A stretch of 64,000 bases of DNA from an uncultured Oscillospiraceae bacterium (lineage in GTDB: Bacteria; Bacillota; Clostridia; Christensenellales; CAG-138): NCBI GenBank assembly GCA_964496795.1, contig CAZCAV010000004.1, positions 4,660 through 68,659 on the forward strand, written 5' to 3'. The notes under the pieces are model-generated. The model made no database searches and was not told where the DNA came from. It saw only the letters and a list, made by a program, of their open reading frames with translations. Shown one piece after another: positions 9,551 to 46,592 of this stretch. The position numbers were made by a program, and so were the translations under genes. The first letter of the stretch is position 1. Each line of letters opens with the position of its first letter.

Positions 9551-9553
9551 ATC

Positions 9554-10372: not shown

Positions 10373-10380
10373 TCGCGCCC

Positions 10381-11328: not shown

Positions 11329-11335
11329 AAATCTC

Positions 11336-12322: not shown

Positions 12323-12381
12323 GTTGCTCCTTTTATAAGGGCGCGCCATTACCCGGCGCGCCCTTTACGGTTCGCTTGTTC

Positions 12382-29225: not shown

Positions 29226-29240
29226 GATGCACGCCTCGCT

Positions 29241-30506: not shown

Positions 30507-30515
30507 GACCGTATA

Positions 30516-31949
30516 TTACAGCAGCTTCTTCAGCTCCGCAATCTTTGCCTCTTCCTCTTCGCCGACTGTCTCGCCCGCACGCTTTTTGTCAAGATACGTC
30601 ATCAGTACCTCGTGACGCGCCCTGGTCAGCTGAAAGCGGCGCGCGACGACGATCGTCGGCACAAGCAGCACCAGCGCCGACAGGGCAATGATGCAGCGTA
30701 TGCCCATCAGCGCCGAAGCGGGCTGCGATACCCCCTCGGCGATCTGCTCGATATAGCCCGCCCAGCCCAATATCCAGCCGATCAGGAGACTGGCAAGCGC
30801 CGAGCAGAGCTTATACAAAAGCTGATTCACGCCGGAGAGCGTGCCCTCGGCGCGTTCTCCCGTAAACAGCTCGTTCGCATCCGTGGCTTCTCCGAACACG
30901 GATATACTCCCGATCAGCGCGAAGCTGATCGAAAAGCCCATGCAGGCGCCCAGGGCATACAGCAGCCAGGTCGGCGAGGCGGGCTGAATAACAAAGGTCA
31001 GCAGGCAGAATACGATCCACAGCACGCTGCCAAGCGCCACGCTGTCCGTCTTGCCCCGTCGGTTGCACACGCGCGTGGCCAGCGGTATGCCGGCGATCTC
31101 CGCAAGCAGCAGTACCCCCAGCACGATCGTCCCGTCCGCACGGCCCAGATAATCCTGCGTAAAATAGATAAACACCGTGGATACCACCGCCATTGTGATA
31201 TACACGCCAAGGTACATCCAGTTATACTGGCGAAAAGTCTTGACCCGCAGCGTAGCCCACATTTTCTTAAGAAGATCCCGGCCGTGCGCGTCGTAGGTGG
31301 AAACAAAATTTTCTGTTTCGCGCACATTGCGAAACGTTATGATATACGGCAGCGCAAAGAGCAGGCTGAACAAAACGCCCATGACAAAGTAGCCCATCCG
31401 GATATCCTTGAAGGCGGAATAAATGTAGTATGGCACCACTGCGCAGATCATTGAGGAAAACAGGCTGACAACCATTTCTACCGCAGTCAGTGAGTTGCGC
31501 TCGTTATAATCTGTCGTCAGCTCCGCGCGCATGGCCATAAACGGCACCTGCACCATCGTGGTCACCGTGTAGCAGAACATAAACGCCAGCGTGAAGTAGA
31601 CCGTTTTCCAGAGCTCGCTGTCTGCCTTCAGCGGAAACCATATCGCTGAAAATGAAAGTATGATCAGCGGAATGCCCAGCAAAAAGTACGGCCGCCGCCG
31701 GCCCCAGCGGCTGCGCGTTCTATCCGAGAGCATGCCCATCAGTGGGTCGGATACGGCGTCCCATACCTTCCCGATCGCCATGATGAGTCCCGCCTTAAAG
31801 GGGTTTATTCCCACGACAGAGGTCAAAAAATACAGATAAAAGAAAGCGATAACATTGTAGCAGCCGCCCGCATAGAAATCGCCCATCGCAAAGGACAGCT
31901 TAGTAGAAAGCTTTAACCCGGGAGAAGCTGTTTCCGTGTTTTTTTCCAT
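30516..31949 (-). CDS. Glycoside-pentoside-hexuronide (GPH) family cation symporter
   Basis: The 477-aa, ~12-TM product has the motif DAVSDPLMGMLSDRTRSRWGRRRPY. Confidence 0.85.
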   Translation of the reverse strand: MEKNTETASPGLKLSTKLSFAMGDFYAGGCYNVIAFFYLYFLTSVVGINPFKAGLIMAIGKVWDAVSDPLMGMLSDRTRSRWGRRRPYFLLGIPLIILSFSAIWFPLKADSELWKTVYFTLAFMFCYTVTTMVQVPFMAMRAELTTDYNERNSLTAVEMVVSLFSSMICAVVPYYIYSAFKDIRMGYFVMGVLFSLLFALPYIITFRNVRETENFVSTYDAHGRDLLKKMWATLRVKTFRQYNWMYLGVYITMAVVSTVFIYFTQDYLGRADGTIVLGVLLLAEIAGIPLATRVCNRRGKTDSVALGSVLWIVFCLLTFVIQPASPTWLLYALGACMGFSISFALIGSISVFGEATDANELFTGERAEGTLSGVNQLLYKLCSALASLLIGWILGWAGYIEQIAEGVSQPASALMGIRCIIALSALVLLVPTIVVARRFQLTRARHEVLMTYLDKKRAGETVGEEEEAKIAELKKLL

Positions 31950-32030: not shown

Positions 32031-33023
32031 TCAGGGAACGAGGCCGACCTCCTTGAGCCAGGCGGCAGCCACATCCTCGGGCTCCTCTTCCTCAACGTCC
32101 ACCTTGTAGTTGAGCGCCATCATGACCTCGTCGTTAATCAGCGGTGCAATGTCGTTCATCAGCTTCACGACCTCGGGATACTGTGCGGCAAAGTCCGCGC
32201 GGAAGCAGGAAACGGCATTATATGCAGGGAAATAGCTGAGGTCGTCCACCAGCAGCACCAGATCGAAGGCTTTGATGCGGGAGTCGGTGGCGAACACCAT
32301 GCCGACGTCGCCCTGCCCGTCCTTCAGCGCCTGGAACACAAGTCCCATATCCATCACGTTCAGATCCTCGCCAAAATCAATGCCATAGGCGTCGGAAAGG
32401 CCAAGCAGACCGTCCTCGCGGATCGTGAACTCATGGTCGCCGCAGAATATCAGCTCGCCCGGATGCTCGGTCATATAGGCGCCCAGCTCCGAATAGCTGG
32501 TAATGCCCAGCGTGGCAACCTCCTGCGTGACGACGAGGCCATAGGTATCGTTCATGGTCATCATGTCGCCCACGGTATACTTGCCCTCGGCCGCAAGCGC
32601 CTCCGCAACGGAGGTATAGAGCGCATCCTTGCCTCCCTCCGGGAACGCCGAATTGCCTAAAAAGGAGCCCCAGATGGTGCCGGTGTAATCCCAGTACACG
32701 TCAAAATCGCCCGAACCAAGCGCGTTCCAGCAAACGTCAGAGCCGGATACGTTGGTTTTATCCTCGCAGACATAGCCCTTGGATTCAAGATACTGGATCG
32801 TGATCTGTCCAAGAAGCAGCTGTTCCGTGAAGTCCTTGGAGCCGACCTTGATGACGTCCGGCTTGGCGACCTCTTCCTCGGCGGCGGGTTCTTCCGTAGC
32901 AGGCTCGGTCGCGGGCGCTTCCGCAGCAGGCTCGGCGGCGGGCGCTTCGACAGTCTTGGCGCATCCTGCGATGCAGGCCATGAGCAGCAGTACGCTCAGC
33001 AGAATAGTGAAAGTCTTTTTCAT
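32031..33023 (-). CDS. Quaternary-amine (glycine betaine/choline/carnitine type) ABC transporter substrate-binding lipoprotein
   Basis: The product has the lipoprotein signal LLLMACIAGC. It has OpuBC/OpuCC-like sequence KVGSKDFTEQLLLGQITIQYLESKGY. Confidence 0.8.
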   Translation of the reverse strand: MKKTFTILLSVLLLMACIAGCAKTVEAPAAEPAAEAPATEPATEEPAAEEEVAKPDVIKVGSKDFTEQLLLGQITIQYLESKGYVCEDKTNVSGSDVCWNALGSGDFDVYWDYTGTIWGSFLGNSAFPEGGKDALYTSVAEALAAEGKYTVGDMMTMNDTYGLVVTQEVATLGITSYSELGAYMTEHPGELIFCGDHEFTIREDGLLGLSDAYGIDFGEDLNVMDMGLVFQALKDGQGDVGMVFATDSRIKAFDLVLLVDDLSYFPAYNAVSCFRADFAAQYPEVVKLMNDIAPLINDEVMMALNYKVDVEEEEPEDVAAAWLKEVGLVP

Positions 33024-33086
33024 GGGTTCCCTCCTAATTTTAATTTGGCTGTATATTATGGGCGACGACGCCCATGGGCCACAGAT

Positions 33087-33815
33087 TCATTGGATGAGCT
33101 TTTTTTCCGCCATGCCCAGCAGGCTGTCAAGCACGAGGGCTAAAATCGTAGCGTATCCCGCGCCGAGCAGCATGATCTGATAGCGCATATAGTTCTTGCC
33201 CGCGATAATAAAATCGCCAAGTCCGCCCGCGCCGACAAAAGCCGCGATGATGGCGGTAGCCACATTGATGACGACCGCTGTGCGTATGCCGGCAAAAATG
33301 ACCGGCATGGCCAACGGGACCTCCACCCGAAACAGCAGCTGCAGCTTCGTCATGCCCATGCCGCGGCCGGCGTCGATGATGAAGGGGTCTACGCCGCGTA
33401 TGCCCGCGATCGTGTTGTTCAAGATCGGCAGCAGCGAATAGATCCACAGTGCAAATATCGCGGTTTTTGCGCCGATACCAAGCACCGAGAACATGATGGC
33501 TACGACCGCGAAGCTCGGAATGGTCTGTAATATGCTCACAAGCCCCACGACAGGCCCGCAAAGCGGTTTGAACAGCGGGCGCGTGAGCAGCAGTCCAAGC
33601 GGCACCGCCGTCACCACGGCCAGCGACGCGGAGATCACGATGATGTAGATGTGCTGCCACAGAGCATGCAGGAGCTTCTTCGTGCTGATGTATCTTGCGA
33701 CCGTTTGATCCATCGGATGGTTGATGACCCACCAGCCCCAGATAATGGCGATCACAACGAGCACAATCGGCAGACACCATTCATACCATGCGATTTTCTT
33801 GTTATTCTGCAACAT
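33087..33815 (-). CDS. Quaternary-amine ABC transporter permease
   Basis: The start is ATG 33815 (MLQNNKKIAWYEW), which overlaps the ATPase 3' end by 14 nt. The product is polytopic. Confidence 0.8.
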   Translation of the reverse strand: MLQNNKKIAWYEWCLPIVLVVIAIIWGWWVINHPMDQTVARYISTKKLLHALWQHIYIIVISASLAVVTAVPLGLLLTRPLFKPLCGPVVGLVSILQTIPSFAVVAIMFSVLGIGAKTAIFALWIYSLLPILNNTIAGIRGVDPFIIDAGRGMGMTKLQLLFRVEVPLAMPVIFAGIRTAVVINVATAIIAAFVGAGGLGDFIIAGKNYMRYQIMLLGAGYATILALVLDSLLGMAEKKLIQ

Positions 33816-34908
33816 GGCTGGCCCCCGTATCAAACAGCTCTGCCATGCCGATGAGCCGTTTCGCCTTCTTCTCCGCATCCACGATGAACACGACCTTTTC
33901 GTTGCGGGCGAACATCAGGCTCATGGCGTCGTACAGCGTCTGGTCCTCCTGTATCATGGCGTCCGTGTGCGTCAGGGCGGCGTCCACGTCCGCAGCGCTG
34001 CCAGGATGCGTACAGCCGGTCTCAATATAGCCAAGGGGATGGCCGTCGGCGTCCGTCACGCCGACAAAGGTATTCGTTTCGGCGGCCTTGAGTATCCGCT
34101 CCGTTTCCGCAATGCAAAAGAAGGGTTCGGAGCCGTTAGCCTCCGCGCAGGACATCAGAGAAAAGCGCTTGATGATGCGGTTCTGGCCGACAAGGCTTTC
34201 CACAAATTCGTTGGCTGGGTGCGTCAGTATCTCGTGCGGCGATCCGACCTGCGCAAGCCGTCCATACTGCATCACGGCGATCTTGTCGCCCATCTTGACC
34301 GCCTCGTCCATGTCGTGCGTGACAAAGACGATGGTCTTGTGCAGCTTTGCCTGGATATTGTTCAGAAACTCGCTCTGGAGGCGGCTTCTTGTGATCGGGT
34401 CCAGCGCGCCGAAGGGCTCGTCCATCAGCATGATCGGCGGATCGCCCGCCAGCGCGCGCGCAACGCCTACGCGCTGCTTCTGACCGCCGGAAAGCGACGA
34501 CGGCTTCTTTTTTGCATAGGCAGGGTCCAGATCCACCAGCCGCATCATCTCCGCGACCCGCGCGGCAATGCGCGCCTTGTCCCATTTCTTTTCGATCGGA
34601 ACCGTCGCGATGTTCTTCTCGATCGTATAATGGGGGAACAGGCCCGTCTCCTGGATCACATAACCGATATTGCGCCGAAGCTCAATGGGATCAAGAGCCA
34701 TGATATCCTGCCGGTTGACAAAAATCTTTCCGTCCGTAATGGGCACCAGCCGGTTGATCATGCGCATCGTGGTCGTCTTGCCGCAGCCAGACGCGCCGAT
34801 CAGCACGCATATCTCGCCTTCGTTGATGGTCAGATTCAAGTCGTTCACGACAGGCTTGTCGCTGCCCGGATAGGTTTTGACCAGATGCTCCATGCGAATC
34901 ATTTCCAT
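33802..34908 (-). CDS. Quaternary-amine ABC transporter ATP-binding protein with C-terminal CBS pair
   Basis: The product has Walker A GASGCGKTT, the signature LSGGQKQR, and a C-terminal ~120 aa CBS-like region, as in OpuA/OpuC ATPases. Confidence 0.9.
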   Translation of the reverse strand: MEMIRMEHLVKTYPGSDKPVVNDLNLTINEGEICVLIGASGCGKTTTMRMINRLVPITDGKIFVNRQDIMALDPIELRRNIGYVIQETGLFPHYTIEKNIATVPIEKKWDKARIAARVAEMMRLVDLDPAYAKKKPSSLSGGQKQRVGVARALAGDPPIMLMDEPFGALDPITRSRLQSEFLNNIQAKLHKTIVFVTHDMDEAVKMGDKIAVMQYGRLAQVGSPHEILTHPANEFVESLVGQNRIIKRFSLMSCAEANGSEPFFCIAETERILKAAETNTFVGVTDADGHPLGYIETGCTHPGSAADVDAALTHTDAMIQEDQTLYDAMSLMFARNEKVVFIVDAEKKAKRLIGMAELFDTGASHVAE

Positions 34909-34923
34909 AGCTATTTCGCCTCC

Positions 34924-35565
34924 TCAGGATATCCGTTTTTCAGATGCGCGCTGCACGATCTGCAGCAGCTTATCCACAATGATGGTCAGCAGCGCGATGA
35001 GTATGCCGGCCACCGCTACCATTTTCATATTGCCGCGGTTGATGCCCTGAAAGATGTACACGCCGAGCCCGCCCGCGCCGACGTACGCCGCGATGGCGCC
35101 TATGCCTATGCACAGCACGACGGCCGAGCGAATGCCCGCAAAAACGACCGGCAGCGCCAGCGGAAAGCGAACCCGCAGATTGATCTCCATTTCCGTCAGG
35201 CCCATCCCGCGCGCCGAATCGATCACTGCCGGATCGATGTTCGTCAGGCCCACATAGGTATTGCGTATGATCGGCAGCAATGAATAGATGACAAGGCCGA
35301 ATATAACGGGAGATTTATTCAGTCCCATGATCGGAACCAGGAACGAGAACAGCGCCAGGCTCGGCACCGTCATAAATATACTGGCAATGTACAGCACGAT
35401 GGTCGCGACCGCCTTATTGTAGGTGATCAGAAATCCGACGATCAGTCCGATCGCAATGGATATGGCCAGCGCGATGAGCACCAGCTCGCAATGCTCCCTG
35501 AGCATCATGAGTATCTTGTCGGATTTCTTCACAACAAAAGCGAAAAACTCCTGTATCTTTTCCAA
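34924..35565 (-). CDS. Quaternary-amine ABC transporter permease
   Basis: The product is 213 aa, polytopic, and paralogous to 33087..33815. Confidence 0.85.
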   Translation of the reverse strand: MEKIQEFFAFVVKKSDKILMMLREHCELVLIALAISIAIGLIVGFLITYNKAVATIVLYIASIFMTVPSLALFSFLVPIMGLNKSPVIFGLVIYSLLPIIRNTYVGLTNIDPAVIDSARGMGLTEMEINLRVRFPLALPVVFAGIRSAVVLCIGIGAIAAYVGAGGLGVYIFQGINRGNMKMVAVAGILIALLTIIVDKLLQIVQRASEKRIS

Positions 35566-35598: not shown

Positions 35599-37038
35599 TC
35601 AATACCGCTTGCTTGGGAATATGACGCCTTCGTTCATGATCCCGTTCGGATCGAATTGCCGTTTGAGCCCCTCAAGCAGCATATAGGCGCTGCCATGCTC
35701 CTGCGCCGTCCATTCCGCCCGCGCCTTGCCGATGCCGTGATGGTGCACCATGGAGCCGCCGCGCTTGAGCGTTTCCTCCACAATGATGCGGTTGATTGGC
35801 TCATGATACTTATGGATCTCCTCGGTAACGGACGCGTTGACATTGTAATAGTAGACGAAATACATGTTCGTGCCGTTGATATAGCTATGTGAGGAATGGC
35901 CCCCGCAGAGCGTGATATCCGGCACCTCCTCCGGTATGCGCTTCACGCAGGCCCTGTATATATTGGCGATTTCCGACCATCCGGCCGATATCTCCGTTGT
36001 AAAGCCCATGTTGTTCGTTTCCTTGATCTCTTCGATCTCCTCGGCGATCTTGGCGGGGTCCCAGTTGAGATTGTTGAACCAATGCTCGATATATTCCGCC
36101 TCCACCGGCCGCCCGCCGCCGGAAAGGACAATATCGTCTATGGCGCGTATGGTGGCCTCGGAGATCGGCATGGGGCCCTCGGTCACGAATATCAGCACGC
36201 AGTTTCCCGTTTCAAAATTCGAGAAATGATAATCGCCGTCCTGCACGTCGTAAAGTCTGGCCACGGAGGGGCGATACCCGTTTACCATGACCTCCCTGAG
36301 CATACGAAAGCCCGTTTCCATATCGTCTATCAGATACCCGCGCGTACGGTAGCTCTCCGGAAAGAAGCGATGGATCTTGAGCGTGACCTCGGTGATAAAG
36401 CACAGCGCGCCCTCGCTGCCGATGATGATATGCCGGATATCCGGCCCCGCCGCCCGGCGCGGCACGCTCTTGATGCGCGCGACCTCCCCGTTTGGGAACA
36501 CTGCCTCAAGGCCGGCGACCATGTCCTCTATGCCCCCGTACAGCGTGGAAAACTGTCCAATGCTGCGTGTGGCCACAAGTCCGCCAAGCTGCGCAAGCGG
36601 CTTGGACTGCGGCGAATGGCCCGTGGTATAGCCATGCTCCCGCAAAAAATCCTCCAGCGTTTCAAGCGGGCAGCCGCACTGCGCCGTCACCTGCATATTC
36701 TCCGGATCAAACAGGAGTATGCGGTTCATATCGGAGCCGTCCAGCACCACGCTGTCGGGCGCAAGCGTTTCCAGCCCGCCCTCGGTGGCGGACGCGCCCG
36801 TGCGCGGCACGCAATTGATCCCGTTTTTGTTCAGGTACCGCAGGATCGCGGACACCTGTTCCACAGAATCCGGACGCACCAGACAGGCGGGAACGGGGCG
36901 CGTGTATACGCCGTGTATCCACTGATACTTTCTGAAGCGATCCACGCTCGCCTGCCTGAGCACCTCTTCATCCGTTACGACCCGATCCTCCCCCACGAGG
37001 GCGACAAGGTCGACGACAATCTGTTCATGCTTTGTCAT
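35599..37038 (-). CDS. FAD-binding (PCMH-type) oxidoreductase, GlcD / alkyl-DHAP-synthase-like
   Basis: The track ORF is trimmed to ATG 37038 (MTKHEQIVVDLVALVG), preceded by AGGAG. The FAD-binding N-domain has PRTGASATEGG. Confidence 0.8.
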   Translation of the reverse strand: MTKHEQIVVDLVALVGEDRVVTDEEVLRQASVDRFRKYQWIHGVYTRPVPACLVRPDSVEQVSAILRYLNKNGINCVPRTGASATEGGLETLAPDSVVLDGSDMNRILLFDPENMQVTAQCGCPLETLEDFLREHGYTTGHSPQSKPLAQLGGLVATRSIGQFSTLYGGIEDMVAGLEAVFPNGEVARIKSVPRRAAGPDIRHIIIGSEGALCFITEVTLKIHRFFPESYRTRGYLIDDMETGFRMLREVMVNGYRPSVARLYDVQDGDYHFSNFETGNCVLIFVTEGPMPISEATIRAIDDIVLSGGGRPVEAEYIEHWFNNLNWDPAKIAEEIEEIKETNNMGFTTEISAGWSEIANIYRACVKRIPEEVPDITLCGGHSSHSYINGTNMYFVYYYNVNASVTEEIHKYHEPINRIIVEETLKRGGSMVHHHGIGKARAEWTAQEHGSAYMLLEGLKRQFDPNGIMNEGVIFPSKRY

Positions 37039-37073: not shown

Positions 37074-37862
37074 TTATACATGGCCGTAATAATCCCTGTG
37101 ATTGACTGCAGAATACGCGTAATCCAGCAGCGTCCCCCAGCTGAATACGGGAAGCTCCACCGCGCGCTGCACCGCGCGCGCAAAGGGCTGCATGCCGGTA
37201 CATTCGAGCATGATGGCGCCGATATCCCGCTCTTTTTCCACAAAGCGGCGCGCACAGCTTACCATCTGCTCCTCCGCCCTGTCGTAATAGGCCTCCGGAC
37301 ACGCCGGACGTTTCTCCGGATTCCACAGGTTGTCAAATTCCGTTACGCCGTATTCGTCCTGCGCGCCGGCGATCACATACCGGCTCTTAGGATCGATCCC
37401 GACGTTTATCAGGTGCTGCGCGCTTAAAAACTGCTTCTGCGCGCAGATGATGCCCACGCGTTTTTCGGGGCCGATGACCTGCTGGATAAACGGCACCTGC
37501 AAAAGACTGGACATGAAAACCGGAACGTTCACCGCCGCCGCCACGTCCTTCTGAAAAAAGGCGAAATACCCGCATTCGGCGGCGACGGCACGGCAGCCCA
37601 GCCGTTCAAGCTTTCTGGCCGCGCGGACGACGGCCTCGCGGCACTGCGCGGGGTTCTTATCATACACAAGCGTCTGGTTCGTTACGCCCTCGGCAATTTC
37701 ATATTGTATCGGATAGGGAAAGGCGCTTGGGTTCCGTACATCGCCCGGAAAGCCCGGGTAGGCGTCGTTGAGTAAAATAATGCCCAGGCCCATGCCATAA
37801 CAAACATGATCCCCTCTGGTTCTGATATAGTTGATGCTGCGATCCCTGTCCTGCCAGTACAT
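37074..37862 (-). CDS. Asp/Glu/hydantoin-racemase superfamily protein
   Basis: The start is ATG 37862, preceded by GGAGG. The product has GIILLNDAYPGFPGDVRNPSAFPYPIQY and AIMLECTGM, recognised from memory of this family and not aligned. Confidence 0.6.
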   Translation of the reverse strand: MYWQDRDRSINYIRTRGDHVCYGMGLGIILLNDAYPGFPGDVRNPSAFPYPIQYEIAEGVTNQTLVYDKNPAQCREAVVRAARKLERLGCRAVAAECGYFAFFQKDVAAAVNVPVFMSSLLQVPFIQQVIGPEKRVGIICAQKQFLSAQHLINVGIDPKSRYVIAGAQDEYGVTEFDNLWNPEKRPACPEAYYDRAEEQMVSCARRFVEKERDIGAIMLECTGMQPFARAVQRAVELPVFSWGTLLDYAYSAVNHRDYYGHV

Positions 37863-37972: not shown

Positions 37973-38761
37973 ATGGATACTAAGGATACCGTCGTCACCG
38001 GCAGGAGCGCCGGCACTGAGCCTTCCGTGCAGTCCATCGAGCGGGCGGTCGCCATACTGCGCTGCTTCGAAAAGGGTTCCAAGCTTACGCTGACCGAGAT
38101 CTGCGCTGCGGTGGGTCTGCACAAATCCACCACCTACGGGATCGTTACGACGCTGAAAAACAGCGGTCTGCTGGATAAAAACGAGGAAACCGGCAAATAT
38201 CAGCTTGGAGTCGGCCTGTACAGGCTGGTAGCCAACGTGGAGCTGGATCTGCGCGACGTCTGCGTCCCGCATATTCGCAGTCTCTGTGAAACCACCGGCG
38301 AAACCGTGAATATGGTCGTTCCGGACGGAACGCATGTGATCTATATCGAAAAGCGCGAAAGCGCGCATTCGGTACGCATCAGTACCAGCATCGGAAAAAG
38401 ACTGCCCATGTACTGCACGGCGGTCGGCAAAGCCATACTTTCGTGCATGTCGCCCGAGGAGGCGTCCCTGCTGCTGGATCGAACCAGCCTTGTCCCCCAG
38501 ACGCGGTTTACGCTGACCGGAAAAGACGATATTCTGCGTCAGCTTGTCGAAGTACGGGAACGTGGCTATGCTTTGGATAGTGAAGAATTGGAATATGGCC
38601 TGGTATGCGTAGCCGTTCCCATTGTCAATGCGCACGGCGTTCCGATCGCCGCCTTGAGCTGCTCCGGCCCCATACAGCGGATGAGCGAGGAAAGGATCAA
38701 CGTCATTTCGCAGGAGCTGCTTGCGCACGCGCATGCCGTTTCCGCAGTGTTGCTGCATTGA
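37973..38761 (+). CDS. IclR-family transcriptional regulator
   Basis: The product has the HTH region LTLTEICAAVGLHKSTTYGIVTTL and a C-terminal effector domain. Confidence 0.85.
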   Translation: MDTKDTVVTGRSAGTEPSVQSIERAVAILRCFEKGSKLTLTEICAAVGLHKSTTYGIVTTLKNSGLLDKNEETGKYQLGVGLYRLVANVELDLRDVCVPHIRSLCETTGETVNMVVPDGTHVIYIEKRESAHSVRISTSIGKRLPMYCTAVGKAILSCMSPEEASLLLDRTSLVPQTRFTLTGKDDILRQLVEVRERGYALDSEELEYGLVCVAVPIVNAHGVPIAALSCSGPIQRMSEERINVISQELLAHAHAVSAVLLH

Positions 38762-38925: not shown

Positions 38926-38954
38926 TTGAACTGGCCGTCGGCACGCGCTATAAT
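38926..38954 (+). promoter_or_regulatory. Sigma-A-type promoter for the panB-mttB arm
   Basis: The elements are TTGAAC, a 17-nt spacer and TATAAT. Confidence 0.55.
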
Positions 38955-38994: not shown

Positions 38995-39053
38995 TTCCAG
39001 CCGTGTCACAAGTATCCTCGCGCCCCATGCAAATCTATCAGGAGGATGAACCC

Positions 39054-39899
39054 ATGAAAAAATCAATTCTCGACTTCAATAAGATGAAGACCGCCGGAGA
39101 AAAGCTTACATGGATTACCGCCTATGACGCGCCCTTTGCTTCCTTCGCGGAGCAGGCCGGCATGGACATGATTCTTGTGGGCGATTCGCTCGGCATGGTG
39201 GTGCTTGGTTACGAAAGCACCATTCCCGTGACCATGGACGACTGCATCGCTCACTGCAAGGCGGTGCGCAGGGGCGCGCCCGGCACCTTTGTCGTAGGCG
39301 ATATGCCCTTTGGCTCCTATCAGGAATCCAGGGAGAGCGCGGTGCACAACGCCGTACGGTTTTTAAAGGAGGGCGGCTCGGACGCCGTCAAGCTTGAGGG
39401 AGGTGTGCGCGTGGCCGAGCAGATCCGCGCCATACGCGACGCCGGCGTGCTCGTCTGCGGGCACATCGGCTTAACGCCGCAAAGTTCGGGCGTGCTCGGC
39501 GGTCATAAAGCGCAGGGCCGCACCCTAGAAAGCGCGCGTGCCGTGATCGAGGACGCTCTGGCCGTAGAGAACGCCGGCGCCAATTTCCTGCTTGTGGAGG
39601 CTGTGCCGCCGGAGGTCGCCGGATTCATAACCAGAAAGCTGAAAATCCCCGTGTATTCCATCGGCGCCGGTGCGGAATGCGACGGCCAGCTGACCATTTT
39701 CGCGGACACGATCGGTCTGTTCCAGGCGTTTACCCCCAAATTCGTCAAAAAGTACTGCGAGATCGCGCCCATCGTGATCGACGCTTACAAGCAATACATT
39801 CGCGATATCCGCGAAGGAAGCTTTCCCGGCGAAGACAACGTCTATCATATCATAGGCGAGCGCGCCCCCTTTGAAGAGCTGTTTCGCGAGTACGAATAA
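39054..39899 (+). CDS. panB: 3-methyl-2-oxobutanoate hydroxymethyltransferase (PanB) homologue
   Basis: The start is ATG 39054, after CAGGAGG. The product has LTWITAYDAPFASFAEQAGMDMILVGDSLGMVVLGY and VVGDMPFGSYQ, typical of PanB. Confidence 0.8.
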   Translation: MKKSILDFNKMKTAGEKLTWITAYDAPFASFAEQAGMDMILVGDSLGMVVLGYESTIPVTMDDCIAHCKAVRRGAPGTFVVGDMPFGSYQESRESAVHNAVRFLKEGGSDAVKLEGGVRVAEQIRAIRDAGVLVCGHIGLTPQSSGVLGGHKAQGRTLESARAVIEDALAVENAGANFLLVEAVPPEVAGFITRKLKIPVYSIGAGAECDGQLTIFADTIGLFQAFTPKFVKKYCEIAPIVIDAYKQYIRDIREGSFPGEDNVYHIIGERAPFEELFREYE

Positions 39900-39931: not shown

Positions 39932-41143
39932 ATGACCAACATGGAATATCTCAAGGATAAGCCCATCGCCGTGCTTGGCGGAGGCAACGTGGCCAAGGCG
40001 ATCGCCGGCGACTGCGCGCTCGGCGGCGCGCGGGTCCGTATCTGCGACCTCATGCCCTTTGCAGCGAACTCGCTGCGTAACCTTGACAAGGCGGGCATTC
40101 GCTTCTACGGGGAGCAGATGAACCTCTACGGCTTCCAGCGCGAGGGCGTCGCTATGATGGACAAGGTGACCACGGAGGTTTCCGAAGCCGTCAAGGGCGC
40201 GGGCATCATCATCATTGGCACGCCCGTGTTCGGGCACCGTCCGTTCTTTGAAAGGCTTATTCCGCTGCTCGAGGACGGGCAGGTCGTTATGATATTCCCC
40301 GATAATTTTGGATCGCTGCTGCTGCATAAAATGATGCGCGAGGCGGGCTGCACCAAAAAAGTCATTATCGGCGGATGGTCCAGCTCCACCTACGGCAGCC
40401 GCATCGACATGGCCGGAAAGCTGCCCACCAACCGCGTCAAGGTCTATTACCGCGCCATCACGCTGCGCGGCGCGGCCATGCCCGCCTCCGATACGCCCGC
40501 TTTCATCGAAGCGTCCAGATATCTGCCCTCCTTCGACGCGGTCACCTTCGGCAACGGCCCCGTTGCGGCGGATACGGCGCTGGATACCGCGCTTTCCAAC
40601 GTCAATCCCGTGCTGCATTGCCCCGGCACCATACTCGGCATCTCCACGATGCAAAACTATGGCCGGATATTCGGCGACGACAAGAAAAAATTCTCCATCT
40701 ATTCCCACGCCTACTGCGAGGGGATTTCACAGGTGCAGTTCAGTTTCTATCAGGAGGAATGCGCGCTGGCCAAGGCTATGGGCGTCGGCATTCAGCCCTA
40801 TGAAAAGGAGCATTTCTTCTCTCGCGAAAACGTTCTTGGGCAGGAGTATATGGGTCTGGATTACGTCATTCCGTTCGACGAGCAGGATCCCATTCAGTAC
40901 GGTACGGGCCCGTTCACCATGGAAAACCGCTACATCACCGAGGATATCCCCACGGGCTGCAATCTGTACAGTCAGCTCGGCCGTCAATACGGCGTGAGGA
41001 CGCCCGTCATCGACTGCATGATCACGCTCGCGGAAGCGATACTGGATCGCGATCTGGTCAGCACGGGCTATACGCTCAAGGATCTCGGCATCGACAATAT
41101 GAGCAAGGACCGTTTGAACGAATATCTGCGCACGGGCAAATAA
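39932..41143 (+). CDS. NAD(P)-dependent opine (octopine/nopaline) dehydrogenase-family protein
   Basis: The 403-aa product has the Rossmann start KPIAVLGGGNVAKAIAGDCALGG. Its overall layout resembles the opine-DH family by eye. Confidence 0.6.
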   Translation: MTNMEYLKDKPIAVLGGGNVAKAIAGDCALGGARVRICDLMPFAANSLRNLDKAGIRFYGEQMNLYGFQREGVAMMDKVTTEVSEAVKGAGIIIIGTPVFGHRPFFERLIPLLEDGQVVMIFPDNFGSLLLHKMMREAGCTKKVIIGGWSSSTYGSRIDMAGKLPTNRVKVYYRAITLRGAAMPASDTPAFIEASRYLPSFDAVTFGNGPVAADTALDTALSNVNPVLHCPGTILGISTMQNYGRIFGDDKKKFSIYSHAYCEGISQVQFSFYQEECALAKAMGVGIQPYEKEHFFSRENVLGQEYMGLDYVIPFDEQDPIQYGTGPFTMENRYITEDIPTGCNLYSQLGRQYGVRTPVIDCMITLAEAILDRDLVSTGYTLKDLGIDNMSKDRLNEYLRTGK

Positions 41144-41153
41144 GGAGGCCGCT

Positions 41154-42587
41154 ATGAAGGATCGCAAGGAATATGACGTCGAACGCAATATCGAATTCAA
41201 TATCCTCACGCCGGACATGAAGGAAAAGATCCATCAGGGCGCGCTGCAGATACTGGAAGAGATCGGCATGAAGATCTCCGGCGACAGAACGCTCCAAAAG
41301 CTAAGAGAGCGGGGCGTAACGCCCGACGCCGACGGACTCGTGCACATTCCCCGTTCCCTGTTCTTCTGGGCGCTTGAAAAGGCGCCCAAGGAGCTGACCC
41401 TGTATGACATGGACGGCAAGCCGCGTATGCAGATCGACAGCCGAAACCGGGTATATTTCGGCACCCATAACGATATGGCCGAGATCCTCGACTATAAAAC
41501 CAATACGGCCAGGCCGATGCTGCTGTCCGATATCCAGACCATGTGCAAGGTGGCCAGCAACTGCGAGAATATCGATTTTGTTCTCTCCGTCGGACTGGTC
41601 CAGGACGTGGACCCGAAGATCCAATCCCAGATGTGCTTTATCGAGTCCTGCAAATATATGGAGAAGGTCATCAACTTCTCCACCAACGACGTGGACGCTC
41701 TGCAGGAGATCATCGACATCGCGGCCGTGCTCGCAGGCGGGCATGACAAGCTGGCTCAAAAACCGTTCATCTTCAACTATTGCGAGCCGATCCCGCCGCT
41801 CACGCATCCCTTTGAGAGCACGGAAAAGCTGTTCGTCGCGTCCTCGAACGGAATCCCCTCCGTCTACATGCCCTACTGCATGATGGGCGGCACTTCGCCG
41901 CTCGACCGGCCTACGACGCTGGCGCAGTGCTTTGCGGAGATCCTCTGCGGCGTGGTCATCTCCCAGCTTGCCCGCGAGGGCGCGCCCTTCATCGCCGGCT
42001 CCATGCCGTCGGTCATCGACATGAAAACCACTGTGGCCAGCTATGCCGCTCCGGAATTCCATCTCATGGTCGCCGCCTCCTCGGAGATGGCGGATTTCTA
42101 CGGCCTGCCGTTTTACGGAACCTGCGGCTGCAGCGACGTGCGCACCTTCGATCAGCAATCCGCCGGAGAGATATCCTATCAGATCCTGTCCACGCTTCTG
42201 AGCAAGGCCAACATCATTCACGATATGGGCCTGCACGATCATTGTATCAACGTCAGCCCCGCGGCGGTCGTCTGGGCCAACGATCTGATCAACGGCTATA
42301 AAAGCTATGTACGCGGCGTGCAGGGCGAGGTGGACATATCTCTGATCAAGGACGTAGGGCCTGCGGGAAACTATCTGTCGGAGGATAACACGCTGGAACG
42401 GTTCCGCGAGGTATGGTATCCCGAGCTGGAAACGCGCCGCCGGCAAAACCTCAACTTCTCCGACCTGTGCGATCGGATCGGCGCGCGCATCGACCGGATG
42501 CTGGAGGAGAATCCCGGTTCCGGCCTCAGCGCAGATCAGCTCGCCTTCCTGGATCAAAAAGCGAAAGAATTCTTATCGCGCGTATAG
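41154..42587 (+). CDS. MttB-superfamily (trimethylamine-methyltransferase-like) protein, non-pyrrolysine
   Basis: The 477-aa frame is uninterrupted. The N-terminus (ILTPDMKEKIHQGALQILEEIGMKI) is typical of the family. The RBS is AAGGAGG. Confidence 0.8.
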   Translation: MKDRKEYDVERNIEFNILTPDMKEKIHQGALQILEEIGMKISGDRTLQKLRERGVTPDADGLVHIPRSLFFWALEKAPKELTLYDMDGKPRMQIDSRNRVYFGTHNDMAEILDYKTNTARPMLLSDIQTMCKVASNCENIDFVLSVGLVQDVDPKIQSQMCFIESCKYMEKVINFSTNDVDALQEIIDIAAVLAGGHDKLAQKPFIFNYCEPIPPLTHPFESTEKLFVASSNGIPSVYMPYCMMGGTSPLDRPTTLAQCFAEILCGVVISQLAREGAPFIAGSMPSVIDMKTTVASYAAPEFHLMVAASSEMADFYGLPFYGTCGCSDVRTFDQQSAGEISYQILSTLLSKANIIHDMGLHDHCINVSPAAVVWANDLINGYKSYVRGVQGEVDISLIKDVGPAGNYLSEDNTLERFREVWYPELETRRRQNLNFSDLCDRIGARIDRMLEENPGSGLSADQLAFLDQKAKEFLSRV

Positions 42588-42597
42588 GGAGCAGCTC

Positions 42598-44025
42598 ATG
42601 GTATGCGATGAAAAAGCCATAGACCTCATACACGAAAACAGCCTTCGCCTGCTCAGCGGGATCGGGATGGCCTTTCAGGCGGAATCCGCGCTGGATACCC
42701 TGCGTGCAGGCGGCGTGGAGGTGCGTGGAAACCGTGCATTCTTTACGGAAAAACAGGTCATGGACGCCGTGAACGCCGCAAAAAAGGCGTTCACGGTGTA
42801 CGCGCGCAACCCCGCATATAACGTGCGCGTCAATACGGAGGAGCTTTACGTTATGCCCGGTTACGGCAGTCCAAGCATCTGCGAACCGGACGGGACGCTC
42901 CGTCCGTCCGGCTTTGACGATTTTCTGAAGCTGGCCACCATCGTGCAGCAGAGCGACGTCTTTTCCATCAACGGCGGCATTCTGGCGCAGCCCAACGATA
43001 TCGAAGCGACCATAGCGGCCGAAGCGATGGTGTACGCCACGCTGAAGATGTCCGACAAGGCGCTGTTCTCCGTTTGCGGAGGCAGGCTGCAGGCAGAGCG
43101 CATTATGGAGCTGATGAAGATCGTTTTCGGCGGCTCCATTCAGGAGCTGCCATGCTCGTTCAATCTGATTTCCACGCTCAGCCCCATGGCACTGGCAAGA
43201 AACGCGATCGAGACCATGGAGGTGTGCGCCCGAAACGGCCAGCCTCTGGTGCTTGCGCCCGGGCCCATGGCCGGCGGCACGGGCCCCGTTTCTCTTGCCG
43301 GCAACGTATCGCTCTGCAACGCGGAGATACTGGGCGCCAACGTATACGCGCAGCTGATCCGGCCGGAAACGCCCATAATATACGGATTTGCAGCGACAGT
43401 GAGCAATATGCGGGATATGAGCTGCTCCAACGCCTGTCCCGGCTTTGTCAAGGAATCGCGCTTCGGCGCGCTGCTGGCCAAAAAATACGGCTTTGCGTGC
43501 CGTAGCGGCGGCGGCATGTCCGACGCCGGCGGCCTTACGGCGCAGGCCGGCGTAGAATCCGCGATGAGTCTGTTTGAGTCGTTCAGCATGAAAGCCAACT
43601 TTATCATGCACGCGGCCGGTTCCATGAGCTCCTTCAACAGCGTCAGCTTTGAAAAGCTCATTCTGGATATCGAGACCATCGGGCGCATGCGCTACTATTT
43701 CAGCGAGCTGCCTGTGGACGAGGAAGCGCTGGGCTTCGACGCCATCCGCGAGGCCGTTGAGGGCGACGGCACCTTCATGCTGCTTGAGCATACGCTCGAT
43801 CGCTGCCGCAAGGATCCCTGGCAGGCCGAGGTATCGCAGCACGGCCGCTGCAAGGGCGATCCGAATCAGGAGCTGTACGGCTCCATCCGCAGGAAGCTGG
43901 ACGAATTGCTGGGGAGCTATCGCCGCCCGCCCATGGACGCGGCGGTCGAAGGCGCGCTCGACGCATATATGCTCTCGATCGGCATGAAGCAGACCGATAT
44001 GGCAAAATGTGATATACTGATGTAA
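42598..44025 (+). CDS. Second MttB-superfamily protein, non-pyrrolysine paralogue
   Basis: The 475-aa frame is uninterrupted. The product starts KAIDLIHENSLRLLSGIGMAF. Confidence 0.8.
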   Translation: MVCDEKAIDLIHENSLRLLSGIGMAFQAESALDTLRAGGVEVRGNRAFFTEKQVMDAVNAAKKAFTVYARNPAYNVRVNTEELYVMPGYGSPSICEPDGTLRPSGFDDFLKLATIVQQSDVFSINGGILAQPNDIEATIAAEAMVYATLKMSDKALFSVCGGRLQAERIMELMKIVFGGSIQELPCSFNLISTLSPMALARNAIETMEVCARNGQPLVLAPGPMAGGTGPVSLAGNVSLCNAEILGANVYAQLIRPETPIIYGFAATVSNMRDMSCSNACPGFVKESRFGALLAKKYGFACRSGGGMSDAGGLTAQAGVESAMSLFESFSMKANFIMHAAGSMSSFNSVSFEKLILDIETIGRMRYYFSELPVDEEALGFDAIREAVEGDGTFMLLEHTLDRCRKDPWQAEVSQHGRCKGDPNQELYGSIRRKLDELLGSYRRPPMDAAVEGALDAYMLSIGMKQTDMAKCDILM

Positions 44026-44049: not shown

Positions 44050-45450
44050 ATGGAACCGCTTCGCCCCATACCCGCGCCCGTTCTTACCCTGCTTGACGCC
44101 GCCGTTTCGGGAAAGCTGCTGTGCGGCGAAAGCATTCAGGACGATTATTCTCACGACGAAATGCCGCTGTACGGCTCGTACCGGCCCGACGCGCTTGTGT
44201 TTCCGCAAAGCACCGCCGAGGTCGCCGCCGTTATGCGCGTCTGCTCTGAGGCAAACATTCCGGTTACGCCGCGCGGCGCGGGCACCGGCCTTGCCGGCGG
44301 CGCCGCGCCCGTCCGCGGGGGCGTCGTGCTTTCCCTTGAGCGCATGAACGCCGCGCCCGTGCTGGATGAAGCCAAGCTCTCCGTTCGTGTGCAGGCCGGC
44401 GTGCTTTTGAAGGACATCCAAAGCGTCTGCGCGCAGAAGGGCCTGTTCTATCCTCCCGATCCCGGCGAAAAAAACGCCACGATCGGCGGCAATGCGGCCA
44501 CAAACGCCGGCGGCATGCGCGCTCTGACATACGGGAGCACCCGCAGCTATATTCGGGCGATGACCGTTGTGCTACCGGACGGTCGGATATTGCAGCTTGG
44601 CGCCGACACTAAGAAAAACAGCACCGGCTATAATCTGCTGCAGCTCATCGTCGGCTCCGAGGGCACGCTGGGAATCATCACTGAGCTTACGCTTGCGCTC
44701 CTTCCGCAGCCCGGGAACGCAGTATGGCTCATAGCGCCCTTCGCCACCGACGCGGACTGCTTCGCAGCAGCCCTCAAGCTGCTTCACACAGCGCCCCAGC
44801 CGGAAACGCTCGAATACGCGGAAGCCGGCATCCTGCGTTCCGCCGAAAAACGGTTGGGACAAAGCATAGTGGATTCAAGCGCCGCCGCCTGCCTCATGGT
44901 CGGATACAGGGAATGCGGCTGCGTTCTATCCCCTTTTTTAGCTAAGACCGGGGAAACGCTCCTGTCCATGGGCGCCACAGATGTTCTATTGGCGGACGCC
45001 CCGCAGAGCGCGGCCCGTTTGCAAACCTTGCGGGACGGCTTTTTGGACGCTCTTCGAGCGGAAGCCGTCTGGATCGATGAAGCAGACGTCGCCATGCCGC
45101 TCGACAAGACCGGAGAGCTTCTTTCTCTGGCGCGCCGGCTTGGACGGGATCGTGCGCTGAGCGTTCGCGCATTCGGCCATATCGGCGACGGCAATCTGCA
45201 TATCTATCTGTGCGGAGACGGCGAGCGCGCTGATTTTCTTGCGCGCACGCAAAGCGTGATGCAGGCGCTTTATGCCGAGGCTGCAAAGCGCGGCGGGCTC
45301 GTTTCCGGCGAACACGGCGTCGGCTTTATCAAGCGGCCTTCTTTCCTCGCGCATACCGATCCCACCGCCCTGGAATTCATGCGCGCCGTCAAAGCCGTCT
45401 TTGACCCCGGCGGTATACTCAACCCCGGAAAAATCATCAGCAAAGAATAG
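44050..45450 (+). CDS. FAD-linked oxidase (GlcD / D-lactate-dehydrogenase-like)
   Basis: The product has VTPRGAGTGLAGGA and [24 protein letters not shown], plus the C-terminal SGEHGVG. Confidence 0.85.
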   Translation: MEPLRPIPAPVLTLLDAAVSGKLLCGESIQDDYSHDEMPLYGSYRPDALVFPQSTAEVAAVMRVCSEANIPVTPRGAGTGLAGGAAPVRGGVVLSLERMNAAPVLDEAKLSVRVQAGVLLKDIQSVCAQKGLFYPPDPGEKNATIGGNAATNAGGMRALTYGSTRSYIRAMTVVLPDGRILQLGADTKKNSTGYNLLQLIVGSEGTLGIITELTLALLPQPGNAVWLIAPFATDADCFAAALKLLHTAPQPETLEYAEAGILRSAEKRLGQSIVDSSAAACLMVGYRECGCVLSPFLAKTGETLLSMGATDVLLADAPQSAARLQTLRDGFLDALRAEAVWIDEADVAMPLDKTGELLSLARRLGRDRALSVRAFGHIGDGNLHIYLCGDGERADFLARTQSVMQALYAEAAKRGGLVSGEHGVGFIKRPSFLAHTDPTALEFMRAVKAVFDPGGILNPGKIISKE

Positions 45451-45537
45451 CCCCCCGCAGCGCACGCCGGAAGCGCAGCCGGCTGCGTCTGTTCTTTCCC
45501 TTCGCCGCCGTACACGGGCAGTTGCCAAGCGTGTTGG

Positions 45538-46559
45538 TTATCTCTGAACCCTTCCGCTGGCATTGCCGTTCACCAACGCCATGACCTCGTCCACGCTGAC
45601 CATATTAAAGTCGTGCTCAATGGAATGCTTCAGGCAGCTGGCTGCAACAGCGTAGTGGATCGCTTTCATGTCCTCCATTTCCATAAGCTGGGAATAGATC
45701 AGCCCTCCGCCAAAGGAATCTCCGCCGCCAACACGATCTACGATATGGACCCTGTATGTCGGTGAAAACAGAGCCTCTCCGTTCGTATACAGCATCGCCG
45801 CCCAGTCATTATCATTGGCGCTGATACTGCCGCGAAGCGTGATCGCTACCTTGCGAAATCCAAACCTGTCTACCAGTTTTTTCGCAACCGAGATATATCC
45901 TTTTTGATCCAGCCGTCCAACGCAGATATCGCTGTTATCTGCTTCGATGCCAAATACGTCTTTTGCATCCTCTTCATTTCCGATACAAATATCCACATAA
46001 GGCATAAGCTTCGTAAGAACTTCGTTTGCCTTGCTTTTTGGCCACAACTTATTGCGATAATTCAGGTCGCATGACACTGTTGCATGGTGCTTCCTGGCCG
46101 CTTTGCAAGCTTCCAGTAATATATCCGGCAGATGCCCGCCCAATGCAGGCGTAATACCCGTCCAGTGAAACCAATCTGCGCCTTCGAAAATCGCGTCCCA
46201 GTCAAAATCGTCCGGTTCGGCTTGTGCAATTGCCGAATCTGCCCGATCATAAATCACTTTGGAAGCGCGCTGGGACGCGCCTTTTTCTACAAAAATACAC
46301 CCAGTCGTTTGCCTCCGCGCACCATGTAATTCGTATCAACGCCGTTCTTGCGCATTTCGTTTACTGCGCACTGCCCTATTTCAGTTGCAGGCACCTTTGT
46401 GACAAACGCGGCATTGATGCCGAAGTTTGCAAGGGAAACAGCGACATTTGCTTCGCCGCCTGCATATGAAACCTCAAATCTGTCGGCCTGTACAAATCTT
46501 TGATAACCCTCCGGATTCAGCCGCATCATGATCTCGCCAAATGTTACAACCTTTTTCAT
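45538..46559 (-). pseudogene. kdgK: PfkB-family 2-dehydro-3-deoxygluconokinase (KdgK-like) with a -1 frameshift
   Basis: The N-terminal part (ATG 46559, MKKVVTFGEIMMRLNP ... GKRLGVFL*) stops at 46287. The adjacent frame reads ..FVEKGASQRASKVIYDRADS.. and runs to 45538. The junction is at the A5 run 46291-46295 (T5 on the coding strand). Confidence 0.75.
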
Positions 46560-46592
46560 TAGAACCTCCATTGCCAGTTTGATATTCTCTTG

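Follow-up and report, generated by a model that had tools for sequence, protein, structure and literature searches.

We analyzed a 64,000-nucleotide stretch of DNA (hereafter the window) from an uncultured Oscillospiraceae bacterium (assembly GCA_964496795.1, contig CAZCAV010000004.1, positions 4,660 to 68,659 of the forward strand), in which two adjacent genes, here named MttB-A and MttB-B, encode divergent members of the MttB methyltransferase superfamily. Genes were called using a codon-usage model together with public gene calls, and Pfam was run over the whole window. MttB-A (41154–42587, plus strand, 477 aa) matches PF06253 with an E-value of 2.7e-60 and MttB-B (42598–44025, plus strand, 475 aa) with an E-value of 2.5e-97, both scores being far above the 25-bit cutoff of the superfamily. 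On TIGR02369, the equivalog model of the pyrrolysine-type trimethylamine methyltransferase, they reach 249 and 174 bits, respectively, against a cutoff of 525, which places both outside that group. No in-frame stop codon occurs inside either open reading frame (ORF), and the position of pyrrolysine (Pyl) is taken by Cys326 (codon TGC) in MttB-A and by Met in MttB-B. MttB-A ends on a TAG codon (42585–42587), which we regard as an ordinary stop because read-through adds just seven codons before a TGA, and because no pyl genes are found in the 64-kb window. A first-pass annotation, made from the DNA letters alone, had described two uninterrupted frames of 477 and 475 aa that do not use pyrrolysine, and had taken them for paralogues that are not the result of a recent duplication; the coordinates, the N-termini and the absence of in-frame stops are all as it gave them. 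The two proteins share only 24% identity by BLASTP and 21% in a MAFFT family alignment, and are therefore ancient paralogues. Each gene is preceded by a Shine-Dalgarno site, and the two are 10 nt apart.

Relatives of MttB-B (60–70% identity) occur in Blautia, Lactonifactor and other Lachnospiraceae, and in Blautia and Lactonifactor they are lone genes. MttB-A has relatives at 73–81% identity in metagenome-assembled genomes (MAGs) of Lachnospiraceae and Oscillospiraceae, and at approximately 50–56% in Acetobacterium, Eubacterium, Sporomusa, Geosporobacter, Desulfobacterales, Ca. Formimonas warabiya, Desulfosporosinus, Thermacetogenium, Synergistales and Calditrichales. The source DNA itself was also found in bioreactor, wastewater and digester metagenomes.

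Active sites of the two methyltransferases

The glycine betaine site of MtgB from Desulfitobacterium hafniense is formed by Y97 and F356, which provide a cation-pi pair, and by R312 and H348, which bind the carboxylate (PMC13080624). This Arg312 is present in every characterized non-Pyl member of the MttB family, all of which remove one methyl group from acidic quaternary amines, and the tetrad is best read as a minimum requirement and not as proof of specificity (PMC13080624). The two proteins were aligned, and their active sites compared with MtgB, as the first-pass annotation had proposed, and also with the Pyl-containing MttB (Pyl-MttB) of Methanosarcina barkeri (7XCL, 7XCN), using the MtgB tetrad (Y97/R312/H348/F356) and Pyl-MttB numbering for positions 110–111, 329, 334, 336 and 370. 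MttB-B keeps the complete Y-R-H-F tetrad, finds MtgB (9YCE/2QNE) as its best match in the PDB (34% identity, E 4e-81), and carries the MtgB-type M-P-G at the corrin-contact motif. It is thus predicted to be an MtgB-like quaternary-amine (betaine):corrinoid methyltransferase, and glycine betaine is a candidate substrate.

MttB-A, a predicted methyltransferase of the superfamily that lacks the arginine, has N/H-Y-H-C at the tetrad positions, so that only H348 is kept, with Arg312 replaced by Tyr and Phe356 by Cys. The same pattern, x-[Y/F]-H-C, holds in 83/83 members of its family (family A), whose alignment to the solved Pyl-MttB came out alike by profile and by MAFFT. In the complex of Pyl-MttB with MttC, a hydrogen bond links the Gly110-Thr111 cis-peptide to the corrin ring (PMC9842639), and this motif is retained in family A, with Gly in 83/83 and Thr in 77/83 members, the window copy included. 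Family A and Pyl-MttB further have in common the whole F109-G110-T111 stretch, Tyr329 (at the position of the MtgB Arg312), D336, which follows S/T after the Pyl position, and an acid at E370, despite an identity of 25% and the absence of UAG or pyrrolysine from MttB-A. The residue at position 334, where Pyl-MttB has pyrrolysine, is Cys in 69/83 family-A members, and the window copy has Cys both there and two residues earlier. Compared with Pyl-MttB, the family has exchanged Tyr364 for His, Met249 for Tyr and Gly372 for Cys.

The resulting signature of MttB-A comprises G103-T104-H105, C210, H218, Y241, Y321, H356-D357 and D362-H363-C364. Seven of these residues are both specific to family A and 100% conserved in it (H105, C210, H218, D357, D362, H363 and C364), H303 (96%) and C326 (83%) come close to invariance, and none of these residues occurs in other MttBs. 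In an AlphaFold (AF2) model of MttB-A, with a mean predicted local distance difference test (pLDDT) score of 88.8, the family-specific residues lie at the C-terminal ends of the barrel strands. The model superposes on MtgB 2QNE with a template modeling (TM) score of 0.87 and on Pyl-MttB (7XCL), including the MttC complex, with 0.89–0.90, the value for corrinoid-bound MttB being 0.89. By these alignments, the family appears as a coherent Arg-less subfamily built on a Pyl-MttB scaffold, with Cys at the Pyl position.

The operon and its neighboring genes

The two MttB genes are the third and fourth genes of a five-gene, plus-strand operon with gaps of 10–32 nt. It opens with a PanB-type 2-oxoacid:5,10-methylene-tetrahydrofolate hydroxymethyltransferase (PanB, 39054–39899, alternative start at 39027; PF02548 E 3e-105), whose family membership is supported by TIGR00222 (317 bits, cutoff 207.55) and by PDB entry 3EZ4 (E 1e-67). 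The second gene encodes a NAD(P) oxidoreductase of the opine (octopine/nopaline) dehydrogenase family (ODH, 39932–41143; PF02317 E 7e-29), which matches CENDH (PDB 1BG6) at E 2e-24. The last gene encodes a GlcD-like, FAD-linked oxidoreductase of the D-2-hydroxyacid type (44050–45450; PF01565 and PF02913), scoring 308 bits on the glcD model, under its cutoff of 568. A sigma-70-like promoter match upstream of panB (38926–38954, plus strand; TTGAAC-17-TATAAT, 10/12 positions, a consensus match only) and a weak, terminator-like hairpin pattern 3' of the GlcD-like gene (45473–45488, plus strand) flank the operon.

A divergent operon on the minus strand begins with a protein of the Asp/Glu racemase superfamily (Race, 37074–37793; PF01177 E 4e-8, 33.7 bits against a cutoff of 31), and an IclR-family regulator (37973–38761, plus strand; PF09339 and PF01614) lies between the two operons. 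Race corresponds to the NCBIfam entry PRK07475, a 'hypothetical protein' (NF005679, 268 bits, cutoff 231), and has two invariant cysteines, in AAECGYF and MLECTGM (67 copies), which fit the superfamily and a predicted racemase-type activity; a sequence search of the PDB detected no solved relative. Next come a second GlcD-like, FAD-linked oxidoreductase (35599–37038; PF01565 and PF02913) and an OpuA-type betaine transporter of the ATP-binding cassette (ABC) class (32031–35565; PF00528, PF00005 and PF04069), consisting of two permeases (34924–35565 and 33087–33815), an ATPase (33802–34908) and an OpuAC binding protein (32031–33023), with a weak match to OsmF. The remaining accessory genes (27043–31949) encode an MFS_2 transporter (30516–31949), an electron-transfer flavoprotein (ETF, 29241–30506), a short-chain dehydrogenase/reductase (SDR, 28446–29225) and an FGGY kinase (27043–28449). 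In the ETF, the beta-like and alpha domains are fused in one 421-aa protein.

Several of these neighbors recur in related loci (given here by their L numbers). The IclR regulator is conserved in the close clade L004–L012 and in L086, the GlcD-like operon gene in the window's own clade only, including L086 and L090, the OpuA-type transporter adjoins the operon in L086, L090 and L006, and a set of ETF, FAD-oxidase, SDR and FGGY genes adjoins it in L091 and L086. Race, ODH and PanB retain their catalytic motifs across the module: the PanB motifs GDSLG, GDMPF, KLEGG and GHIGLTPQ and the catalytic Glu are all conserved in 56 copies, and in ODH the GGGNVAKA motif is conserved while NVNPVLHCPG and RYITEDIPTG are invariant. 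Of all parts of the locus, it is these PanB, opine-dehydrogenase-like and racemase-like partners, missed by the first-pass annotation, that tell the most.

A widely conserved gene module

In order to take an unbiased census of the gene neighborhood, we clustered all ORFs of 82 MttB-carrying loci (the loci anchored on MttB-A, plus the window). The opine-dehydrogenase-like gene was found in 68/82 loci, the racemase-like gene in 66/82, PanB in 55/82, a protein of approximately 490 aa (a sigma-54 activator where annotated) in 49/82, a corrinoid protein in 43/82 and a BCCT transporter in 38/82. The taxa that harbor this module include Lachnospiraceae, Acetobacterium, Eubacterium, Sporomusa, Desulfobacterales, Ca. 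Formimonas and Thermacetogenium. The pairing of an Arg-less protein of the MttB-A type with an MttB that bears Arg312 recurs in approximately 80 genomes and many metagenome loci, and the Arg is retained by the second MttB in every module. In the first-pass annotation the divergence of the pair was taken to mean two substrates or two successive demethylation steps; the pairing fits either of these readings.

A reciprocal scan anchored on ODH yielded > 523 metagenomic relatives and 64 informative loci, among which an Arg-less MttB lies directly 3' of ODH in 28–30, and an Arg-bearing MttB in 0/64. ODH is thus the most conserved partner of MttB-A. In other lineages (L074–L078, L128–L130, L146–L152, L159) the slot directly 3' of the opine-dehydrogenase-like gene is held by a sister clade of Arg-less MttBs (A'), with approximately 30% identity to MttB-A and P-[W/F]-[C/A]-H-G at five key positions, and in these loci a gene of the proline racemase family (Pro_racemase) usually replaces the PRK07475 protein. 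Eubacterium limosum carries a reduced version, Race-MttB-MttB-A (ADO38648 to ADO38650). By accession, the proteins of this module, the MttB-A orthologue included, are neither MtyB nor MthB, and the 482-aa MttB beside the orthologue may be MtpB (WP_038353400.1, 54 kDa). None of the characterized E. limosum enzymes MtpB, MtcB and MtyB, all of them Arg312-bearing and specific to acidic quaternary amines, has been described with opine-dehydrogenase, racemase-like or PanB partners.

Taken together, MttB-A, an Arg-bearing MttB, ODH, the racemase-like protein and PanB form a widely conserved and uncharacterized module. Non-Pyl MttB homologues, as well as donor-side methyltransferase (MT1) genes without an adjoining corrinoid gene, are well known; the Arg-less family A, its fixed association with ODH, the racemase-like protein and PanB, and the breadth of the module appear to be undescribed.

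Clues to the carbon skeleton

Gene contexts in which ODH and its partners occur with other enzymes give clues to the compound that the module handles. Among 97 ODH loci, 74 have Race only, 11 a Pro_racemase-family gene only, 3 both and 9 neither, a complementarity that is significant by Fisher's test (p 4.5e-7), with the limit that the lineages are not independent. In L092 and L094, ODH (86–87% identical to that of the window) is followed directly by a Pro_racemase-family gene and a TRAP transporter, with no MttB; in L092 (2050–9192) the cluster runs from TetR through opine dehydrogenase, proline racemase family and TRAP genes and continues with an Fe-S serine-dehydratase-like gene. By its gene content, this cluster looks like an uncharacterized imino-acid pathway of its own. 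In four lineages, AcnX and its swivel subunit neighbor the module; the AcnX family includes cis-3-hydroxy-L-proline dehydratase, whose product is pyrroline-2-carboxylate (PMC5144071). The known reductases of pyrroline-2-carboxylate (Pyr2C) belong to superfamilies other than opine dehydrogenase (PMC4113996), and literature searches for an opine-dehydrogenase-type Pyr2C reductase returned nothing relevant. One locus, L160, combines AcnX, swivel, racemase-like, opine-dehydrogenase-like, LIV-type ABC transporter and serine-dehydratase-like genes on one strand with PanB and formate-tetrahydrofolate ligase (FTHFS) on the other, and since it does so without any MttB, PanB belongs with the carbon-skeleton enzymes. 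Distant ODH relatives (53–56% identity) occur with the racemase-like gene only, in one case flanking a BrnQ transporter.

The corrinoid partner

The first-pass annotation found no gene with a B12-binding domain in the window, and three lines of search bore this out: among the genes called in the 64 kb Pfam identified none, a six-frame scan of the window did not find the B12 signature DxHxxG...SxL...GG, and hidden Markov models (HMMs) trained on 68 ORFs of corrinoid proteins and 19 ORFs of pterin-binding acceptor-side methyltransferases (MT2) of related loci gave best window matches of E = 2.8 and E = 0.89, respectively, with a positive control that found 73. Rfam likewise detected neither a cobalamin riboswitch nor a member of any other family in the 64 kb. 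The search of related loci covered a flank of 10 kb.

The picture in orthologous loci is different. Of those that are full-length, 35/54 have a corrinoid protein (PF02310/PF02607) inside the module and 14/54 a Pterin_bind MT2 (PF00809); by gene calls and Pfam, a Eubacteriaceae MAG and Geosporobacter are among those with a PF02607/PF02310 protein, and Geosporobacter also has the Pterin_bind MT2. All characterized enzymes of the MttB superfamily are corrinoid-dependent (PMC13080624, PMC8604678, PMC12155760). While mtgB adjoins its corrinoid gene DSY3155 in D. hafniense, in the anaerobic Firmicute E. limosum the non-Pyl MT1 genes mtpB, mtcB and mtyB all lie apart from the shared mtqC, mtqA and ramQ (PMC8604678). 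By this analogy, a neighborhood free of corrinoid genes is a documented arrangement and not remarkable, and we assume that the corrinoid protein, MT2 and activase of this lineage are encoded outside the window. A related locus with 61% identity (L091, 3060–7309 and 7861–12923) has the PanB, opine dehydrogenase, MttB-A and MttB operon back-to-back with genes for MTHFR, FTHFS, FchA, FolD and a formate transporter, which links the operon to the methyl-tetrahydrofolate oxidation branch; despite these adjoining folate one-carbon (C1) genes, neither a corrinoid protein nor an MT2 is encoded within 10 kb of it. A comparison of L084 with L085 had suggested PanB as a substitute for MT2, a role that is ruled out by the co-occurrence of PanB and Pterin_bind in 11 loci, and that is also at odds with the PanB copies that accompany ODH, Race or AcnX with no MttB.

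Other features of the window

The URO-D-type gene that the first-pass annotation gave as the only other methyltransferase-fold candidate does lie in a different cluster, unrelated to the operon, and its extent is 11336–12349 (minus strand), the end at 12322 being wrong. This cluster (8609–12349, minus strand) further encodes FMN reductase-like, metallo-beta-lactamase-fold and flavodoxin-plus-4Fe-4S proteins downstream of a sugar-type ABC transporter, and contains no corrinoid protein. A KdgK-like sugar kinase gene of the PfkB family (45538–46571, minus strand) is split by a frameshift into an N-terminal ORF (46287–46571) and a C-terminal ORF (45538–46257), and is either a pseudogene or a shared assembly error, since an independent Logan contig has the same split. 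Between approximately 46000 and 56000 the GC content is 0.49–0.53, compared with approximately 0.58 elsewhere in the window, and the genes there encode AllG-/AllF-like oxamate carbamoyltransferase subunits, an FAD_binding_2 flavoprotein, an IlvD/Edd-type dehydratase, a metallo-beta-lactamase-fold protein and acetate kinase; this region may be a horizontally acquired fermentation island of the purine/allantoin type. Finally, an 817-aa fusion (60923–63376, minus strand) of a CoA-disulfide-reductase-like Pyr_redox_2 domain with rhodanese, TusA and DsrE looks, from its domains, like a sulfur-trafficking enzyme.

Discussion

The reading that we favor, and consider on balance probable, is that MttB-A and MttB-B are two donor-side MT1s of one corrinoid-dependent pathway that successively demethylates the betaine of an amino or imino acid. 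From the family memberships, active-site patterns, operon structure, and conservation and composition of the module observed above, we infer in which order the steps run, what the substrate is and where the corrinoid partner is encoded. The betaine would be imported by the OpuA-type transporter, and MttB-B, with its cation-pi pair and Arg/His carboxylate site, would take a methyl group off the quaternary amine. MttB-A, which has lost the carboxylate-binding Arg as well as one cation-pi residue and has a Pyl-MttB-like pocket with Cys instead of pyrrolysine, would remove a further methyl from the tertiary amine so formed, in which case it would share with Pyl-MttB the use of a non-quaternary amine. 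The racemase-like protein would then invert the alpha-carbon of the demethylated amino or imino acid, the opine-dehydrogenase-like enzyme would oxidize its C-N bond with NAD(P)+ to a 2-imino or 2-oxo acid, and, through PanB, this oxo acid and tetrahydrofolate would exchange a C1 unit. The methyl groups would pass from methyl-corrinoid to methyl-tetrahydrofolate by way of the corrinoid protein, pterin-binding MT2 and activase presumed to be encoded outside the window.

With regard to the substrate, the gene contexts point to a proline-type imino acid, and proline betaine or a close analogue is the leading candidate, favored because its N-methyl groups number exactly two and because most of the context agrees with it. 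A route from glycine betaine through dimethylglycine to sarcosine was considered and found weaker, as it offers no stereocenter to a racemase and as organisms that stop at dimethylglycine carry MttB-A too. Homoserine betaine (through a PanB retro-aldol reaction of 4-hydroxy-2-oxobutanoate) and valine betaine (suggested by the BrnQ and LIV transporters and by alpha-ketoisovalerate) are possible, and less supported than a proline-type skeleton. The proposed sequence resembles the aerobic catabolism of proline betaine and hydroxyproline, in which demethylation, inversion of C2 and oxidation or reduction of the C=N bond of pyrroline-2-carboxylate are carried out by demethylases, the racemase HpbD, D-imino-acid dehydrogenases, Pyr2C reductases and AcnX/LhpI, and the AcnX and Pro_racemase-family genes next to the module strengthen this likeness. 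The enzymes themselves differ, the aerobic route employing Rieske or flavin demethylases, enolase-superfamily racemases and ketimine reductases of the OCD or MLD2 families (PMC4113996, PMC3950512), and the module, as predicted, corrinoid-type MttBs, a PRK07475 racemase-like protein and an opine-dehydrogenase-family enzyme.

A number of observations weigh against this proposal. On the side of the substrate, the role of PanB is unexplained for a proline skeleton, and E. limosum reportedly stops at N-methylproline. MtgB, whose exact tetrad MttB-B carries, hardly uses proline betaine (PMC13080624). The transporters differ among loci (OpuA, BCCT, LIV-type ABC, BrnQ, TRAP), and some of them hint at branched-chain amino acids. 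With regard to the enzymes, not every member of family A has Cys at the Pyl position, the closest relatives of MttB-A having Ala or Thr there and Cys two residues earlier, and the module of E. limosum lacks both ODH and PanB. The Arg-bearing partner is drawn from at least four clades, which fits several input substrates, or mere co-location, equally well. No corrinoid protein, MT2 or activase was seen in the window, nor within 10 kb in the window's clade (L004–L012, L086, L090, L091), and literature searches on the gene combination of the module found no relevant description.

Some of these points would suit an arrangement in which the two enzymes work in parallel and not in sequence, each demethylating a different methylamine or betaine (for example, glycine betaine for MttB-B and an unrelated non-acidic or tertiary amine for MttB-A) and sharing only regulation and a distal corrinoid/MT2 system. 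We give this a real but clearly lesser chance. It would account for partners from at least four clades with < 40% identity alongside a constant MttB-A, for the lone relatives of MttB-B in Blautia and Lactonifactor, and for the units of ODH, Race and PanB without any MttB in L160 and L162–L170, and it agrees with the many MttB paralogues of methylotrophic genomes (42 in E. limosum). Weighing against it, an Arg-less and an Arg-bearing MttB are paired in most modules, in very different taxa and often with gaps of tens of nucleotides, and in the window the two genes, 10 nt apart, share one operon with one betaine-type transporter nearby.

A more specific proposal, which we advance as rather doubtful, is that the MttB-A subfamily performs a pyrrolysine-free demethylation of a tertiary amine, with the Pyl-MttB pocket scaffold kept, with pyrrolysine replaced by the set of Cys, His and Asp residues for metal or acid catalysis, and possibly with coupling to ODH. 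In its boldest version, ODH may oxidize an N-methyl imino acid (e.g. N-methyl-D-proline) to an N-methyl iminium, which may serve as a permanently charged, quaternary-like methyl donor to Co(I), after which ODH may re-reduce the released imine. By analogy, such iminium activation may be the small-molecule counterpart of the role that the pyrrolysine imine plays for trimethylamine.

The same residues could instead mean that MttB-A is not a donor-side MT1, and that its Cys/His/Asp set binds a metal such as Zn for an acceptor-side role (methyl-corrinoid to a thiol or other nucleophile) or for a role other than methyl transfer, acting on the product of ODH. Zn sites made of Cys and His characterize enzymes such as MtaB, MT2, MetE and those of the BHMT type, the seven invariant residues and the nearly invariant H303 and C326 all face the catalytic side of the barrel and have no counterpart in other MttBs, and the betaine-binding Arg and Phe are lost. 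We nevertheless judge this very unlikely, given that metal binding is a prediction from residue patterns, that no acceptor-related gene is conserved in the module, that the pocket scaffold is like that of the donor-side Pyl-MttB, and that modules with a Pterin_bind MT2 already own an acceptor-side enzyme.

The most improbable explanation, hinted at in the first-pass annotation, is that one or both MttB homologues work without a corrinoid and hand the methyl group straight to tetrahydrofolate or some other acceptor, possibly together with the tetrahydrofolate-binding PanB, and it has in its favor the absence of corrinoid and MT2 genes from the 64 kb and from the 10-kb flanks of the clade (even beside MTHFR, FTHFS, FchA and FolD), the binding of a folate by PanB, and the direct methyl transfer from onium compounds to nucleophiles by other folds, such as DmdA and BHMT; it fails to fit the orthologous modules of acetogens and sulfate reducers that carry a corrinoid protein and often an MT2, the Gly-Thr corrin contact that MttB-A keeps, the corrinoid dependence of the characterized family members, the distal partners that are the documented norm in E. 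limosum, and the occurrence of PanB together with an MT2, or with ODH, Race and AcnX without an MttB.

How anaerobes without pyrrolysine remove the next methyl group, from dimethylglycine or N-methylproline, is a question that has been raised for Ca. Formimonas and Sporomusa (PMC9768040). The large MttB-A subfamily, with members in gut Lachnospiraceae, acetogens, sulfate reducers and digester organisms, makes this question of tertiary-amine demethylation directly testable, and the module predicts new activities for an opine-dehydrogenase-family enzyme, the PRK07475 racemase-like family and a PanB paralogue. These activities would be of relevance to the ways in which betaines, otherwise a feedstock of trimethylamine production, are disposed of by the microbes of guts and sediments. 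If the pyrrolysine-free, iminium-based demethylation proposed for MttB-A is true, the module would represent a new and widespread anaerobic route for the complete demethylation of dietary and osmolyte betaines.

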